Part shown: positions 15,878 to 27,746 of the stretch, in pieces | Layout: every line of letters starts with the position of its first letter | How positions within the stretch are numbered: position 1 is the stretch's first letter | Origin: a virus | Taxonomy: Duplodnaviria > Caudoviricetes | Strand: one strand, 5' to 3' | Length of the DNA stretch: 27,746 bases | IMG/VR virus record: IMGVR_UViG_3300043218_000107 | Location: 1 to 27,746 of that record | The notes under the pieces: model-generated | Seen by the model: only the letters and a program-made list of their open reading frames with translations | What the model was told of the DNA's origin: nothing | The model's database searches: none | Position numbers and translations under genes: made by a program

Positions 15878-16015
15878 TTTGAGGAATCAAGAATGGCCGT
15901 AATTATTATTAATGAAGATGGACAGGCTTTTTATAGTCCACCAGAACTCGATGCTTTCACATATTATCGGGACTATATACTCAAACGAACTTTTAAGGAA
16001 TTCTTTGCATTGAAT
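15873..16015 (+). repeat. Direct repeat, copy 1 (upstream region plus 5' end of adhesin A)
   Basis: TCTGATTTGAGGAATCAA...ATGGCCGTAATTATTATT...GAAGATGGACAGGCTTTTTATAGTCC...GATGCTTTCACATATTA is near-identical to 17600-17742. Confidence 0.9.
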
Positions 16016-17581
16016 CCACAAGCTAATCTTGAAGGATGGCTTGATATTTCTGGACCGGCATATTGGCATTTTCTTGAACATTTCGACGCTCATTGGGAAG
16101 GTAATACCATTGTTATGGATGATGATGAAGATAGTTTATGGCTGACGCCAAGAAGATATGATGGACTTGAATGGAACGATTTTCCTCGAAATCAGCCAAA
16201 TACACTTCAAAATATGTTACCTACTTCTATTAGAGTGGTAATTGTAGATAAAAATAATAATGAAAAAATATTAACTAATTGTACAATAGCTGTTGGTGAT
16301 AAGTTGCCTTTTATGAGGGTGGATTTCGGAGAATCAGAAAATGGTGTTGAAGTAGTTTATGATCCATATAATGTCAGAGTTAGAGAGCCTAATCTTGCTC
16401 AAATTGTAACTCTACTACTTGATCATCTTTTAGAAGGAGACCGAGTTAAAAAAATTGAATTTAATTTTAGTATTTTTCCAAGAGCTAATTTTACAGTTCT
16501 TAAACAGTTAACATCAAAAGGTTTTTGGGGTTGGTACACTGAAAGTGCTGTTAATTCAAATGGAACTCCAGTTTTAATGCTTTCAAGTGGCTCTGATAAA
16601 CTTTATCATGCTATTTGGAATGGCGTATCTTGGGATGTTTATTACTTACCTGTTGATTATCTTTGGCAAGTAACTTATGCAGGTATTTCTATTGACAATT
16701 TTAATGAAGTTCATTATTTTGATCTTGGACTTATTCAAAATGAGCATACAAGAACATCATGGAATGTAAATGATGGTTGGTATGATCAATTTGTTGTTTA
16801 TGCAGCTGAAACTTGGGCGTATAGTAAAGCTATTGCTCTTGATAATAATGGATATACCCATCTTTTTACTATTTTCAGAAGATTGTCTGACAATAGTTAT
16901 TATATAAATGATTATTATCAAGATGCTTCCGGTTGGCATAATGAAGTACTCGTTGAGTTTGGAGTGAGTCCAGCTTATGGTACTTTTCAGCAGTATTCTC
17001 GTCTTGTTTTTGATAATTATAATCGATTTCATTTTATGATTTCAACGGAAGAAATTTCATCAGGTTTAAGTGGAATTTTATATATAACGAATGCCAATGT
17101 CCCTTTGACTACAGAATTTTTATGGGGCGTGGAGGCCGGCACGTTTACGATGCCCAGGTTAGTAAATTTTTGGATTGACAAAGATAATAATAATCATATG
17201 TATTATTTGGTAGCTATTCCAAGTCAAGACACTTTGAAACTTTTCGACAAAGCTTGGAGTAGTTCCAGTTGGACAGAAACTGAAATCGGGTCGGAGTATA
17301 CAGAAGTTCAATTTGCTGAGAAGCATAATAATCTATTACATATGTTAGAAGCTCTAAGTCTTGATGGCCCTGGTATGGGATATCATCAATATGATCTTGG
17401 CACAAAAACATTCTTAAAAACAGGATTAAGAGTATATGGTGATGTCATAATTAGGGATGATTGGCCAGGAGTACGTTGCCAAAGATTTAGTTCTACTTTT
17501 TTTATGAAAGATGGAAAACCTACTTTTGCGCAGATGGATTCTGATCAAATTGGTTTTCAAACTGTGGAGATTAATGAATAA
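15893..17581 (+). CDS. Putative receptor-binding/adhesin protein, copy A (beta-propeller-like C-terminus)
   Basis: 562 aa, aromatic and beta-rich, with recurring [IL]D.....H and W-ending blades. Paralog of 17619-19385. Confidence 0.55.
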   Translation: MAVIIINEDGQAFYSPPELDAFTYYRDYILKRTFKEFFALNPQANLEGWLDISGPAYWHFLEHFDAHWEGNTIVMDDDEDSLWLTPRRYDGLEWNDFPRNQPNTLQNMLPTSIRVVIVDKNNNEKILTNCTIAVGDKLPFMRVDFGESENGVEVVYDPYNVRVREPNLAQIVTLLLDHLLEGDRVKKIEFNFSIFPRANFTVLKQLTSKGFWGWYTESAVNSNGTPVLMLSSGSDKLYHAIWNGVSWDVYYLPVDYLWQVTYAGISIDNFNEVHYFDLGLIQNEHTRTSWNVNDGWYDQFVVYAAETWAYSKAIALDNNGYTHLFTIFRRLSDNSYYINDYYQDASGWHNEVLVEFGVSPAYGTFQQYSRLVFDNYNRFHFMISTEEISSGLSGILYITNANVPLTTEFLWGVEAGTFTMPRLVNFWIDKDNNNHMYYLVAIPSQDTLKLFDKAWSSSSWTETEIGSEYTEVQFAEKHNNLLHMLEALSLDGPGMGYHQYDLGTKTFLKTGLRVYGDVIIRDDWPGVRCQRFSSTFFMKDGKPTFAQMDSDQIGFQTVEINE

Positions 17582-17599: not shown

Positions 17600-17742
17600 T
17601 CTGATTTGAGGAATCAAAATGGCCGTAATTATTATTGGCGAAGATGGACAGGCTTTTTATAGTCCGCCAGAACTTGATGCTTTCACATATTACCGGGATT
17701 ATATACTCAAGCGAACTTTTGCAGAATTCTTGCAATTAAATC
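17600..17742 (+). repeat. Direct repeat, copy 2 (upstream region plus 5' end of adhesin B)
   Basis: Near-identical to 15873-16015, with mostly synonymous differences. Confidence 0.9.
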
Positions 17743-19385
17743 CTGGTGCTGCTGAGGAAGGATGGGTTGATGTTAGTGGTCAAGCTTGGTGGGAACTTGA
17801 TGTTGGAGATTCCGAACAGGATCAAGGGAATGTTGTGTGGGATGGGACTCATGTAGTTCAAGTTAAAGCTAATGAAGCCTTTAGTCTTGATGCAAAATTA
17901 AGAAGTTGGCCGGATTCACCGCCAGAGTTACCTTGGACTCGTTATCTACGTCCATCAAGAATAAGATTTACTGTTAAAAATGCAGGTGGTGCTCTTATAA
18001 CCGTGACAGCTTCGGGTCTTACATTCGATAATGATGGTGAATTTATGCAAGCCTTTGAAGTTGGGGCTGTAAATCTTCCAGATGGACTTATTTTTGCTGT
18101 TGACCCACAACAACCAATAGTCGGTGATAGTGACCATATTCAATCCATAAGATTTTCCTATTTTACAGGGAGAATGGTACCTGGCGATAGAATTATAAAA
18201 ATTGAATTTAATTATGATCCTCTTGATCGTGTTGATTATACTAATATCTTTGTTGAAATTGATATACCAGAAGTTACAAGTCGAGTCAATTTTGTAACAA
18301 CTGGCAGCAAAAGTGATGGCACACCTGTTATTCAATGCTCACAGGATAATGGTTATAACGATTATCATGGTATCTGGAATGGGGAGTCATGGGATTATTA
18401 TTATTTACCTGTTACTTCTGGTCAATCACAACTCGATATTATTGGTTATGATGATTTTGATAATGTTCATTATATCCAATCTGGAACTCCTGGAAGCTTT
18501 AAGCGATGGTCTTGGAACCTAAGTTCTGGTTTCTATGACCAGGATATAGATTTTTCAATCCGTCCAGGAGATCAATGCTGGAATCCAGTTATAGGCCGTA
18601 TGGAAGCAGTTGATCCAGATGGATACAATCATTTTGTAACTCGTGGTCGAACAACCGAGGGTAGATATTTTATTAGCCATTATTATCAAGATGCTTCTGG
18701 TTGGCATCATGAAGAGATTTTTGATTTCGGAGATAATGATATTGAAAATTATCCTTGGTTTCATCAATATTGTTCTCATTTAGATATGGCTATCGACAGT
18801 TATGGAAAGGTTCATGTATTTGTAGAAATAGTTATGAGGGAACCCCCACTTTGGGGTCAATCACAAGCTTTAGGGTATATTACAAATTCACGAACAAGTG
18901 GATGGACTTCTCAAATATTAGAACCTTGGGGGACAGGTGTTGGGCGACTTGACTGCGCGGATATTTATGTTGATCGTGAAAATGATAATTATTTAACAGG
19001 TATAATTGGTAGTTTTCAGTTACCACTTCTTTTTATGGAAAAAGAATTTACCGCTACAGATTGGACTTATACTGAGATTTTACCTGGCACTGACCATGAT
19101 TATCTTCAATCTGTTAAAATCGGTGACATTTATCATCTTCTTGGGAATCAGCAGCAGCAGGGCTATTATTATATAAAAATGATGGATTATCTAAAATATG
19201 ATGGCCCAAATCATGAAATTATAGCTGAGAAGAGTATGTATACGCCAGGTGCACTTATAACTCAAAGACAGATGCTCTGGGAACAAGTTTCATATTATGT
19301 AAGAGATGGAAAGCCAATACTATGTACGCCTGGGGAATATTGGAATCCTCTCAATTATTTTAATGAACAGGAGATTAATGAATAA
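17619..19385 (+). CDS. Putative receptor-binding/adhesin protein, copy B
   Basis: 588 aa. First ~42 aa nearly identical to copy A; shares YYQDASGWH and C-terminal EINE. Confidence 0.55.
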   Translation: MAVIIIGEDGQAFYSPPELDAFTYYRDYILKRTFAEFLQLNPGAAEEGWVDVSGQAWWELDVGDSEQDQGNVVWDGTHVVQVKANEAFSLDAKLRSWPDSPPELPWTRYLRPSRIRFTVKNAGGALITVTASGLTFDNDGEFMQAFEVGAVNLPDGLIFAVDPQQPIVGDSDHIQSIRFSYFTGRMVPGDRIIKIEFNYDPLDRVDYTNIFVEIDIPEVTSRVNFVTTGSKSDGTPVIQCSQDNGYNDYHGIWNGESWDYYYLPVTSGQSQLDIIGYDDFDNVHYIQSGTPGSFKRWSWNLSSGFYDQDIDFSIRPGDQCWNPVIGRMEAVDPDGYNHFVTRGRTTEGRYFISHYYQDASGWHHEEIFDFGDNDIENYPWFHQYCSHLDMAIDSYGKVHVFVEIVMREPPLWGQSQALGYITNSRTSGWTSQILEPWGTGVGRLDCADIYVDRENDNYLTGIIGSFQLPLLFMEKEFTATDWTYTEILPGTDHDYLQSVKIGDIYHLLGNQQQQGYYYIKMMDYLKYDGPNHEIIAEKSMYTPGALITQRQMLWEQVSYYVRDGKPILCTPGEYWNPLNYFNEQEINE

Positions 19386-19816
19386 TGGCAAAATTTTTAG
19401 AATATGTTGAAGCAATGAATATTATTGAAGGTGATACCGAAGGCGATGGAACTATCTACCTTCAAATTCAAAGCAGAGGATATGGTATCCAAGGTAATAT
19501 TGCTATATTTGAATTTTATCCAATGACAGCAGATGCGATTGGAGCAAATTCAAATAAAGGTATAATACCAATTCCACTTGAAGTCTTTGCCACTAATCAA
19601 AATCAGGGTTACATTGAATTACCATTTCCTTCTATGGAAGCAGAAGGTGAAATTCGAACAGCCAGAGCACAAATATACTGGCCTGTTATACAAACTGATG
19701 GTTTTATGACTTTTGAACCTTGGGCATATCTAATACTTCCAACTTTTGAAGTTATTTGTTTCGGAAATCCAAATAGAATTTATGAACTTTGTTTAAACAC
19801 AAATGAAGGTTTGTAA
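19385..19816 (+). CDS. Hypothetical protein (tail module)
   Basis: 143 aa, TAATG-coupled to the genes on both sides. No recognised motif. Confidence 0.6.
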   Translation: MAKFLEYVEAMNIIEGDTEGDGTIYLQIQSRGYGIQGNIAIFEFYPMTADAIGANSNKGIIPIPLEVFATNQNQGYIELPFPSMEAEGEIRTARAQIYWPVIQTDGFMTFEPWAYLILPTFEVICFGNPNRIYELCLNTNEGL

Positions 19817-20979
19817 TGAAAGAATTTTTATCAAAAAAGAATGTTATCATTGTTAAAAAAGGAACCAAAATAATCAATGGTAAAGATACTGGACGACCTT
19901 GTCTGATTATTGGTGTTTCTAAAAAGGTTTCAAAAAAACAATTAAAATCTGAAGACCTGATTCCTCAAATCACTCGGGATGGTCAGGTAACTGATGTTAT
20001 TATCCAAAAGCCTTTTAAAGCTTTGAATCAGTGTTATGATCCTGATCCAGATGATGGTTGTCCATTACATACTGATAAAATTCGACCAATGATTGGTGGA
20101 ATCAGTATTGGGAGAGCCAGTCAAAATATTACGGGAACTGGTGGACTTCTTGTTGGAGATGCAACAGATGGTGCGCTTGTTTTTTTAACAAATAATCATG
20201 TTATTAATTTACAGTTTGATCCTAATTATGCTTTTCCTCTTGGTGGAAGTCTTGATCCAACAGTTATTAAAATGATTCAACCCTCGCTACTTGATGGTGG
20301 TTCCGAGACAGCTGAATTCTTAATTGGATGGGGTAAAAGATGTATTCCAATTCAATTTGGTTCTTTAGGCGAGAATCGTGTGGATGCTGGTATTATTGAT
20401 ATAAGTGATCTGTCAGAAACAATGACAGATGTTCTCCATAAACATGCTGGCCCATTTCCGTTTCTTGCTAATAATGAAATTAATCCTGGCGATATTCTTG
20501 AGAAAAGTGGAAGATCAACTGGAAATACATCTGGAGTCATTTCAGCTATTGATGTAGCAGCTAATGTTAATTATATTAATGACGACCCAGAGAATGTTGG
20601 ACAATTTGTTGGTCAAATTTTAATTGAAACTGCTGATCGTTATAGTATGTCAGGTGATTCCGGTTCAGTTTGTACAAGAAAAACTGGCGGAGCGCATAGA
20701 GTAGCAGGATTATTATTTGCTGGTAGCGAAGATGGTAAATCAACTCTTGTTAATCCAATGGGGTCAGTTGCTTCTGAATTGCAAATTGAATCTTGGGATG
20801 GGAATATTTCAATTGCTCCTGGGGCACTTCCTGTTCTTGCTGTTCATTATCGTTGTTATAATATTACTAATGACTTTATTCTTGGTGATGCTTCACATAT
20901 ATCTCAAACTGCTTTTGCTTCCTGTAACGAATGTTTAACATTCCAATTTAAAAGAAATATATTAGGAAACGTTATCTAA
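19816..20979 (+). CDS. Trypsin-like (S1 clan, NAL1-like) serine protease with N-terminal prodomain
   Basis: Catalytic triad motifs LTNNHV (His), VDAG (Asp) and GDSGS (Ser). Also RPMIGGISIG, TGTGG, KSGRSTG.T.G and VAGLLFAG. Prodomain-like VSKK.....L..EDLIP......TDV. Confidence 0.88.
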   Translation: MKEFLSKKNVIIVKKGTKIINGKDTGRPCLIIGVSKKVSKKQLKSEDLIPQITRDGQVTDVIIQKPFKALNQCYDPDPDDGCPLHTDKIRPMIGGISIGRASQNITGTGGLLVGDATDGALVFLTNNHVINLQFDPNYAFPLGGSLDPTVIKMIQPSLLDGGSETAEFLIGWGKRCIPIQFGSLGENRVDAGIIDISDLSETMTDVLHKHAGPFPFLANNEINPGDILEKSGRSTGNTSGVISAIDVAANVNYINDDPENVGQFVGQILIETADRYSMSGDSGSVCTRKTGGAHRVAGLLFAGSEDGKSTLVNPMGSVASELQIESWDGNISIAPGALPVLAVHYRCYNITNDFILGDASHISQTAFASCNECLTFQFKRNILGNVI

Positions 20980-25987: not shown

Positions 25988-26290
25988 ATGGAAGAAGTAA
26001 CTTTTGGACAGTATGCTGTTCCTGTGATATTGACTGTTATTTTGGGATTGGTTTATAAAATGGTAACGACAATTCCTGACAAATGGAAATCTTTGATCGC
26101 TGTTGGTTGCGGCATTGGTTTGGGTATGATCGCAATACCTTATAATTCATTGCCGTTTACAGTAGTCAATATCGTAGACCATGCAATTTATGGTCTGATG
26201 ACAGGGGCGTCCGCGGTTGGCTTGTGGGAATTATCGCGGACAGTAATAAAACCGCGCAACGGCGGAACACCGCCACCTAAAATCCCGTAG
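25988..26290 (+). CDS. Putative holin
   Basis: AAGGAGGT RBS. Three short TM segments, IPDKWK.LI and G...GASAVGL.E motifs, and a basic C-terminus. Confidence 0.68.
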   Translation: MEEVTFGQYAVPVILTVILGLVYKMVTTIPDKWKSLIAVGCGIGLGMIAIPYNSLPFTVVNIVDHAIYGLMTGASAVGLWELSRTVIKPRNGGTPPPKIP

Positions 26291-26869: not shown

Positions 26870-27136
26870 ATGACTGATTTTCGAAATCTTCCGAACGGGG
26901 ATAAATATGCACCACAAAGAGGACGACCACCGGAAGAGCCTAATGGATATTGCAGGGATGGAAGAGACCCGTTCCTCTTCCACCCTATTCTTTACGCTTG
27001 CATATATCGTGTTCCTTACACTGAACACTTCGATTGCGGTCGGATTATTGGTCATACATTTTGTGATCACTTTGAAAAAGATATTACTGGAGGAGATTGT
27101 CACAAATGTCTAATCCCGAATTTACAATCCCGATAA
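26870..27136 (+). CDS. Small Cys/His-rich protein, possibly metal-binding
   Basis: ATG 26870, 88 aa with six Cys including a C-terminal CHKC. Confidence 0.55.
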   Translation: MTDFRNLPNGDKYAPQRGRPPEEPNGYCRDGRDPFLFHPILYACIYRVPYTEHFDCGRIIGHTFCDHFEKDITGGDCHKCLIPNLQSR

Positions 27137-27154
27137 GGGAAAAGGATTATATAG

Positions 27155-27352
27155 ATGCCACAACGAAAAAGAAAAAGCGGTGGAAAGAAATGGATTCAAG
27201 GTGCAATCAAAAACCCAGGTTCCTTGACCCGCACGGCAAAAGGGAAAGGGATGTCAATAGCAGCGTTTTGCGCCCAGCCAAAAAGTAAGCTGAGCGCAAC
27301 AAGTAAACGTCGCTGAAATTTACGAAAAACCCTGGTAGGGTTTAAGAAATAA
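27155..27352 (+). CDS. Small highly basic protein with in-frame TGA at codon 54 (candidate selenoprotein, 65 aa; 53 aa if TGA is a stop)
   Basis: AAGGA RBS. Translates as MPQRKRKSGGKKWIQGAIKNPGSLTRTAKGKGMSIAAFCAQPKSKLSATSKRR-TGA-NLRKTLVGFKK-TAA, with a hairpin whose loop begins 17 nt after the TGA. Confidence 0.65.
27325..27343. promoter_or_regulatory. Hairpin: SECIS-like on + strand and/or intrinsic terminator on - strand
   Basis: AAACCCT-GGT-AGGGTTT at 27327-27343. On the - strand it ends in TTTTT right at the exonuclease stop. Confidence 0.55.
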
Positions 27353-27746
27353 GACCACCTGAGATTAGATGCTTGTAGACTTTAGCGGTAGCAATACAAT
27401 CGCTTAAAGCATCATGCGCTCGTTCTGTTTTAATTTTTAATGTGGAGCAAAGATATTGAAGTCCTGTTTTTGAAAATGGGACTTTTTCTGCGTGCATAGC
27501 AGCTTTATCATTTAAACAGTTAGCATAGATCATTGTGTCGCGGTAATGATAATAAAACCACTGGTCATATAATTCTCGTCCCAACCATCCCATTATAAAA
27601 CCTCGATCAAAAGTATAGTTATGGCCAAGTGGGACAATATTTTTTGAACGACCATAAGTTGTTACTGGAAGCCCTAATTTATTAATCCAATCATCAAGCA
27701 TATCAATAGCTTTGATTCTATCAAATCCGCTTTTCATAAGTTCCGG
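27342..27746 (-). CDS. DEDDh 3'-5' exonuclease (DnaQ/Pol III epsilon-like), N-terminus outside window
   Basis: ExoII motif GHNYTFDRGF, RDT and ExoIII motif AHDALSDC. The frame stays open to the window edge and the ExoI motif is missing. Confidence 0.88.
   Translation of the reverse strand, partial: PELMKSGFDRIKAIDMLDDWINKLGLPVTTYGRSKNIVPLGHNYTFDRGFIMGWLGRELYDQWFYYHYRDTMIYANCLNDKAAMHAEKVPFSKTGLQYLCSTLKIKTERAHDALSDCIATAKVYKHLISGGLIS

Follow-up and report, generated by a model that had tools for sequence, protein, structure and literature searches.

In bacteria the SECIS element directly follows the UGA on its 3′ side, and homologs carrying Cys or TGA at the same position form the standard second criterion for a selenoprotein gene (PMC9312934). 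Two described elements bear directly on the present case. The SECIS of the SaoC gene has a 10-nt spacer, a 7-bp stem and a GGU loop, which is the geometry of the hairpin presented below (10.1101/2022.07.06.499078), and a SelD example from the BSepDB paper has a GGC loop at +18 to +20, as does the related phage gene L271 (PMC13326102). Among viruses, a 2019 review names two poxvirus peroxidases as the only proven selenoproteins (PMC6769590; likewise PMC8310308). For phages, one predicted tRNA-Sec has been reported according to PMC6145125, and in a laboratory evolution of phage T7 selenocysteine was offered for a structural bond and was not taken up (PMC8923235). Our search of mainly open-access literature found no report of a phage selenoprotein, and there is none in the available portions of three selenium surveys and of the BSepDB paper.

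A second system concerns the protein itself. VP2 of the virus SSV1 is a DNA-binding protein which was purified from particles and is dispensable in culture (PMC3367457). Homologs of VP2 occur in unrelated archaeal and bacterial viruses, according to a review (PMC9608457).

The window analysed here is the whole stretch of 27,746 nucleotides of an uncultured marine-sediment tailed phage, and it carries terminase, portal, P22-like capsid, tape measure and holin genes. The last gene of its plus-strand structural and lysis block is a small ORF with an in-frame TGA, which a preliminary description had proposed as a selenoprotein gene. The features required for the analysis are as follows.

25988–26290, plus strand: holin-like gene (PHROG holin, E 6.4e-10)
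26870–27136, plus strand: Cys-rich 88-aa ORF, upstream neighbour of the UGA gene
27142–27146, plus strand: ribosome-binding site AAGGA, read from the sequence, 8 nt upstream of the ATG
27155–27352, plus strand: candidate selenoprotein gene, ATG at 27155, TAA at 27350–27352; PHROG 20603 family, VP2-like
27191–27220, plus strand: family signature W-I-Q-G-A-I-K-N-P-G, residues 13–22, also present at the N-terminus of SSV1 VP2
27269–27271, plus strand: TGC codon of Cys39, the residue predicted to bond with position 54 from co-occurrence across the family
27314–27316, plus strand: in-frame UGA, codon 54, predicted selenocysteine from alignment to Cys, conservation and hairpin
27317–27349, plus strand: conserved tail of 11 codons, NLRKTLVGFKK, forming most of predicted helix 4 (residues 48–64)
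27327–27343, plus strand: SECIS-like hairpin, 7-bp stem, GGU loop at +18 to +20 from the UGA, from folding and family comparison
27342–27746, minus strand: 3′ portion of a DnaQ-like exonuclease gene in convergent orientation (222 aa in a longer assembly)

The ORF, its ribosome-binding site and its in-frame TGA read as had been described, and so does the stem AAACCCT-GGT-AGGGTTT, which starts 10 nt past the TGA. The product comprises 65 residues if UGA54 is read and 53 if it is not; the 65-residue form contains 19 K/R and no D/E. At its 3′ end the read-through ORF overlaps the exonuclease gene by 11 nt.

Several other features of this phage deserve mention. In three related UGA phages (the window, G002 and L271) the 88-aa ORF stands directly 5′ of the UGA gene, and it has five invariant cysteines (C44, C56, C65 and C77-x2-C80). 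Family searches with it gave no match; it is possibly a metal-binding protein or a partner. Two adjacent tail-region genes, encoding 562 and 588 aa, are paralogs whose starts have 175 nt in common at 81% identity (15892–16066 and 17618–17792), with further blocks at 16596/18355 and 16894/18662; the pair resembles a duplication of a receptor-binding gene in which the anchor is shared. Within the tail module, 19816–20979 on the plus strand is a protease-like gene (PHROG 20754, E 8e-39), and G002 has a similar ORF at the matching position. Beyond the window, assembly G001 contains two ParB-like genes (28508–29716 and 33547–34509), a Dam-type methylase, a PolA-type polymerase and a DNA ligase, and no integrase was recognised by eye within its assembled 52%.

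Taken as a whole, the locus is best read as encoding a 65-residue phage selenoprotein, recoded by SelB and the hairpin, in which a Cys39–Sec54 staple holds a DNA-binding core protein; we regard this combination, drawn from sequence comparison, as highly likely. The hairpin 10 nt past UGA54 would recruit host SelB and Sec-tRNA. The inserted selenocysteine would bond with Cys39 and thereby staple a protein which is small, highly basic and predicted to have four helices, and which would bind DNA within the phage particle. The likely reason for using selenium is that such a selenium-containing bridge may form or persist in reducing, anoxic conditions where a Cys/Cys disulfide of the relatives would not. 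A mixed Se–S bond partly resembles a diselenide in its behaviour. Diselenides have redox potentials below those of disulfides and form in the reducing cytoplasm (PMC8923235). When read-through fails, a 53-aa product devoid of most of helix 4 would result, so that host selenium would govern how much intact protein is made. This by-product is to be expected because Sec recoding in E. coli is 30–40% efficient (PMC4513850).

The family provides the first line of evidence. A search with the read-through protein found 14 proteins, 12 with Cys39 and Cys54 and two which stop exactly at residue 53. The wider family is large, with 7707 of 8000 scored candidates passing the profile, and the Atlas clusters closest to a Cys homolog consist mostly of viral sequences. 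Cultured phages gave one weak match to the protein, and no close relative when compared by major capsid or cell-wall hydrolase; plasmids gave no match. The motif KKWIQ.AIK.PG ... KR..L..TL, named in the preliminary description, proved to be real in the family. W13, I14, A17, P21 and G22 are invariant in 84 members, several of these residues having been part of the search pattern itself.

Positions 39 and 54 vary together. Among 165 distinct proteins from the collected loci, Cys39 is present in 10/10 UGA forms, in 77/78 Cys54 forms and in 0/77 others, the last group including one non-family row (L333). This joint gain and loss suggests a bond between the two positions, the pair being optional for the family. 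In the first 80 viral loci, position 54 is Cys in four and an in-frame stop in two, one of which is the same phage as the window; the bond would be dispensable for the family since the other 74 have A, I or V there, without Cys or UGA. The proposed pairing of UGA54 with Cys39 thus holds in the Cys39-bearing subfamily and does not extend to the family at large, in which A, I or V at 54 together with the absence of Cys39 is common; the pair is accordingly not needed for the fold. On this co-occurrence, an intramolecular Cys39–Sec54 bond is probable. Elsewhere in the family, a separate branch carries another Cys pair (..WC..x..EC..) in L102, in L361:4843-5070 (P0016) and at residues ~375–424 of gp45 (L362). 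The Cys/Cys members L145, L183 and P0010–P0013 have a C-terminal extension, GGQVQGCGCPYGMEMGP, with two extra cysteines.

The predicted model is all-helical (pLDDT 77; helices 12–18, 21–31, 35–39 and 48–64). Residue 54 is situated inside the last helix, with L56, T59 and L60 beyond it. Solved structures gave no clear match by sequence or fold (best Z 3.8). The window protein matches phrog_20603 over residues 12–65 (E 4.9e-6) and has no match at E<=0.1 to PF25632 or other Pfam models. In the family, PF25632 (Fusello_VP2) gives weak matches in 52/84 members (best E 2.6e-4), and the relative P0107 bears a precomputed annotation of this VP2 domain. The hhalign comparison of the family with SSV1 VP2 reaches 92.7% over 18 columns, mainly the N-terminal 18 residues, and a profile built from the Cys-free members can be aligned to VP2 over residues 2–74 (E 3.8e-6 in 472 sequences). 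Like the window protein, VP2 is small and very basic, with a KW[IV]Q.AIK.PG start and a basic C-terminal helix; in contrast, SSV1 VP2 lacks Cys, is longer in its middle region and infects, as part of its virus, an archaeon. Residues ~375–424 of the crAss001 cargo protein C1 (gp45) form a related module, which a family member detects by tblastn at E 1e-3 and which directly precedes the domain bound to the portal within the capsid (PMC10172136). This module is, however, embedded in an 842-aa ejected protein and has a different Cys pair. Foldseek rows to crAss cargo protein 1 are weak (rmsd 1.3–1.8 A over 43–45 columns, E 2–4), as is the direct profile comparison of the family with gp45 (probability 3.4%).

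The UGA gene occupies a late or head-module position in 7/8 cases. Together with the charge and the VP2 link, this position points to a core protein that binds DNA in an accessory role and whose covalent staple is optional. A DNA-binding role in the virion is on balance favoured by these sequence comparisons, and the stapled core-protein role as a whole is, in our reasoning, about evenly poised. More tentatively, and with slightly less than even confidence, we suggest from the alignments that in a virus-only family of VP2-like DNA-binding core proteins one Cys of a structural disulfide has been exchanged for selenocysteine more than once, in phages of anoxic sediments.

Within the selenocysteine reading, other functions have to be weighed. 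Cys39 and Sec54 could form a redox switch, for example for DNA release on entry into the reducing cytoplasm, or act as metal ligands, for example at a Zn site that spans a dimer. A transcriptional regulator which does not reside in the particle is another option. As a group these options are unlikely. Most bacterial selenoproteins are redox-active (PMC9312934), but the phage protein has no CxxC or CxxU motif and no known redox fold, and other members have a different Cys pair (L102, P0016, crAss gp45) or none, as befits an optional staple. The regulator variant draws on weak matches of 35/84 members to NikA-like ribbon-helix-helix models and on the UGA gene of L318, which sits before a helicase; in its ribbon-helix-helix form it disagrees, despite the weak matches, with the all-helical predicted model, which has no N-terminal β strand ahead of two helices, as such a protein requires. 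Of the redox switch between Cys39 and residue 54 envisaged in the preliminary description, the pairing is supported through co-occurrence; as to its function, a structural staple suits the pair at least as readily as a switch.

The second line of evidence is the codon itself. Pattern scans gave 9 viral and 71 metagenome matches, mostly off-frame or unrelated, and off-frame and non-family pattern matches were removed before counting. Codon 54 specifies Cys in 78 distinct proteins and is an in-frame TGA in 10 distinct genes, which dereplicate to 8 at pairwise identities of 49–81%. All 10 retain Cys39 and the conserved tail past the UGA. At codon 54 no TAA, TAG or TGG was found, and at codon 39 no stop. 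On viral contigs, TRR codons at 54 in the presence of Cys39 are TGA in 4/4 cases, and at position 39 no TRR codon was found. Without a downstream requirement, a stop at codon 54 occurs in 4/23 matches, all four being TGA and all four followed by the conserved tail. The nine codons past the UGA score 13–23 bits against the profile of Cys members, compared with −1 to −19 in the other frames, and synonymous codons vary within them. The check proposed for homologs, namely Cys or a conserved TGA at 54 with conserved downstream residues, gave that result in the Cys39-bearing subfamily. Database annotation reflects the same position: among the best 120 database proteins, 17 terminate precisely at residue 53, each of them carrying Cys39, and no other internal end point occurs; 5 of the 17 match collected loci and 12 do not. 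As the query was built from such sequences, 17/120 is not a frequency. Entries cut at residue 53 imply that phage selenoproteins are probably being missed.

The strict pairing with Cys39 and the absence of TGG at 54 in Cys39 members indicate that the residue must be a thiol or a selenol. The Cys/TGA column, the conserved tail and the UGA-specific hairpin support the original assignment, and we conclude that the residue inserted at UGA54 is very probably selenocysteine. Cysteine is the alternative: some deltaproteobacteria carry a selC* tRNA-Cys with a UCA anticodon together with selB* and cysS*, and suppress opal codons with Cys (PMC5389517). Recoding of UGA54 as Cys by selC* tRNA-Cys(UCA) and a second, hairpin-guided SelB, as in Desulfobacterales, would suit a phage found in marine sediment, the aligned Cys and the existence of such a described system. 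The same genomes, however, carry the full Sec apparatus (PMC5389517), for which reason selenocysteine would be expected as the main product even there, and a costly UGA with hairpin brings no clear gain over a TGY codon. Insertion of Cys is highly improbable.

The hairpin is the third line of evidence. In the window it folds at −7.3 kcal/mol, at z −0.6 to −1.5 relative to dinucleotide shuffles, and by itself it is not above chance, 16 to 52 of 200 shuffles folding equally well. Across genes the difference between UGA and Cys codons is pronounced. Ahead of this comparison a tail filter removed 9 rows (5 genuine Cys members, 4 non-family). The median MFE of +9 to +36 is −8.25 kcal/mol in the 8 UGA genes vs −2.05 in 54 Cys genes (p=2e-5), and relative to synonymous recodings that leave the peptide unchanged the median z is −3.2 vs +0.08 (p=1e-6); these p-values are optimistic, since the 54 Cys-codon genes were taken among the matches listed, from at least 120 loci, and related genes are not independent. 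A SECIS-like rule (<= −5.5 kcal/mol, loop <=4 nt with G in the first two places, start at +17 to +26), whose thresholds were chosen after the UGA sequences had been seen, is passed by 7/8 UGA genes and 1/54 Cys genes, L318 missing it narrowly. The threshold-free MFE and shuffle tests agree with this result. As background, 68/4631 TGA trinucleotides and 1/37 TGA ORF stops in three of these phages pass the rule. That single ORF end, G001:25248-25487 on the minus strand beyond the window, is followed by LCPCL; its homolog in G002 ends nearby at TAA, and it is probably an ordinary overlap stop.

The apical loops of the 8 UGA genes are GGU, GGC, AGGU, GGC, GUG, GGA, GGA and AGUU, at +18 to +23. Covariation in a single fixed register is not above shuffles, because the loop register shifts between lineages. 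In L259, one added loop base moves the 3′ arm, which changes the peptide from LVGF to LGRV with the stem retained. The plus strand folds better in 8/10 genes, mostly by a small margin. Rfam has no family at gathering score in the window.

The position of the hairpin next to the convergent exonuclease raises the question of whether UGA54 is a true stop, leaving a 53-aa truncation or pseudogene, with the hairpin as the exonuclease terminator. A change from TGC to TGA needs a single substitution, and on the minus strand the stem begins at the stop codon of the exonuclease, with a U-run behind it (5 in the window, 5 in L123, 4 in L271). Against the stop itself, the tail is in frame and conserved in 8/8 dereplicated genes; TGA as the sole stop at 54, none at 39 and the kept tail argue against decay, and TGG is likewise missing at 54. 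The terminator role cannot explain the hairpins of L127, L273 and L129, where a convergent exonuclease is absent; in L259 that gene is present and no U-run follows the stem, and a terminator scan did not list the window hairpin. The recurrence in phages without that neighbour also speaks against the concern that the hairpin might be conserved only as a terminator. As a full account, this alternative is very improbable. It is possible, from the sequence, that the hairpin also serves as a terminator in the window's own phage group, in addition to the selenocysteine recoding which we favour.

Leaky read-through at UGA54 by near-cognate tRNAs (Trp, Cys, Arg), non-specific, stimulated by the hairpin and giving a minor share of full-length protein, finds a parallel in other viruses, where 3′ hairpins can stimulate read-through. 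Position 54 nevertheless shows only UGA, never UAG or UAA, and we give this explanation even less credit than the true stop.

The TGA letters are genuine. They are identical in two other assemblies of the same phage (L001/G001, 99.97%; L255, 99.94%), and four further runs show no alternative letter at 27314–27316, these being contigs and not raw reads, all from 2020 marine sediment and possibly from one campaign. These assemblies and contigs rule out a sequencing error, and the check on these letters suggested earlier came out in favour of the TGA. Relatives covering the site in the small-share runs X8–X11 show no TGA change among the matches listed, an observation not counted as evidence here. 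In contigs of runs X3–X5, window:27209-27497, which includes the UGA and the hairpin, has zero differences, and window:27498-27708 shows exonuclease alleles ~10% divergent. Reassignment of UGA throughout the phage or host genome (code 4 or 25) has a negligible probability and was rejected, as had been anticipated: nothing was found in favour, TGA ends 12/50 long ORFs in the longer assembly (table 11 coverage 89%) and Trp is encoded there by TGG 292 times, G002 and G003 use stop and Trp codons in the same way, and Trp or Gly would mismatch the Cys column.

The UGA genes come from several phages. In the window's phage group (window, L123, L259 and L271) the UGA gene is found at the end of the late block facing the exonuclease. 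In L273 it lies between terminase and portal, in L127 after the terminase, in L129 after a lysozyme and in L318 before a helicase, which amounts to at least three unrelated phage contexts. The tree requires 4 changes of the UGA label (3–5 in bootstraps) and is poorly resolved, so that the UGA form may have a single origin followed by gene transfer; the UGA genes thus do not count as fully independent cases.

The holin and the NlpC/P60 hydrolase, the latter in the longer assembly with matches below curated cut-offs, point to a bacterial host, and a SECIS inside the ORF fits such a host. Four partial phage records yielded no tRNA-Sec, nor did ARAGORN detect one in the window. A GTDB scan gave no UGA-form prophage among 29 matches; 2 of the 29 are family members, both with Cys codons, and lie in MAG bins, possibly as stray phage contigs.

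If this reading is correct, the gene would be among the first phage selenoproteins and would encode a probable DNA-binding particle protein. It would define a selenoprotein family of viral origin which is not an enzyme and in which selenium probably serves a structural bond. On the more tentative suggestion of repeated exchanges of Cys for selenocysteine in core proteins, natural phage particles would carry a selenium–sulfur staple made through host Sec machinery, tying particle quality to host selenium, and the UGA-plus-SECIS gene would mark Sec-using hosts. Such genes could also help host assignment. Because this very small gene has numerous natural relatives of the Cys/Cys and Cys-free kinds, the advantage of Sec over Cys is directly testable.

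Compared with the bacterial in-ORF SECIS genes of the E. coli fdhF type, the phage genes share an in-frame UGA aligned with a homolog Cys and a stem-loop immediately 3′ of it, with a 3–4 nt loop containing G. They differ in being phage genes of a family known from viral sequence only. Their product is, moreover, predicted to be non-enzymatic and has no redox fold, its partner Cys lying 15 residues upstream instead of in a CxxU or CU motif. The poxvirus glutathione peroxidases (GPx) of molluscum contagiosum and fowlpox likewise represent virus-encoded selenocysteine made with host machinery, whereas they depend on a eukaryotic SECIS and are host-derived peroxidases. The recoding mechanism is thus a known one, and the new part would be its use in a virus-only, non-enzymatic phage protein.
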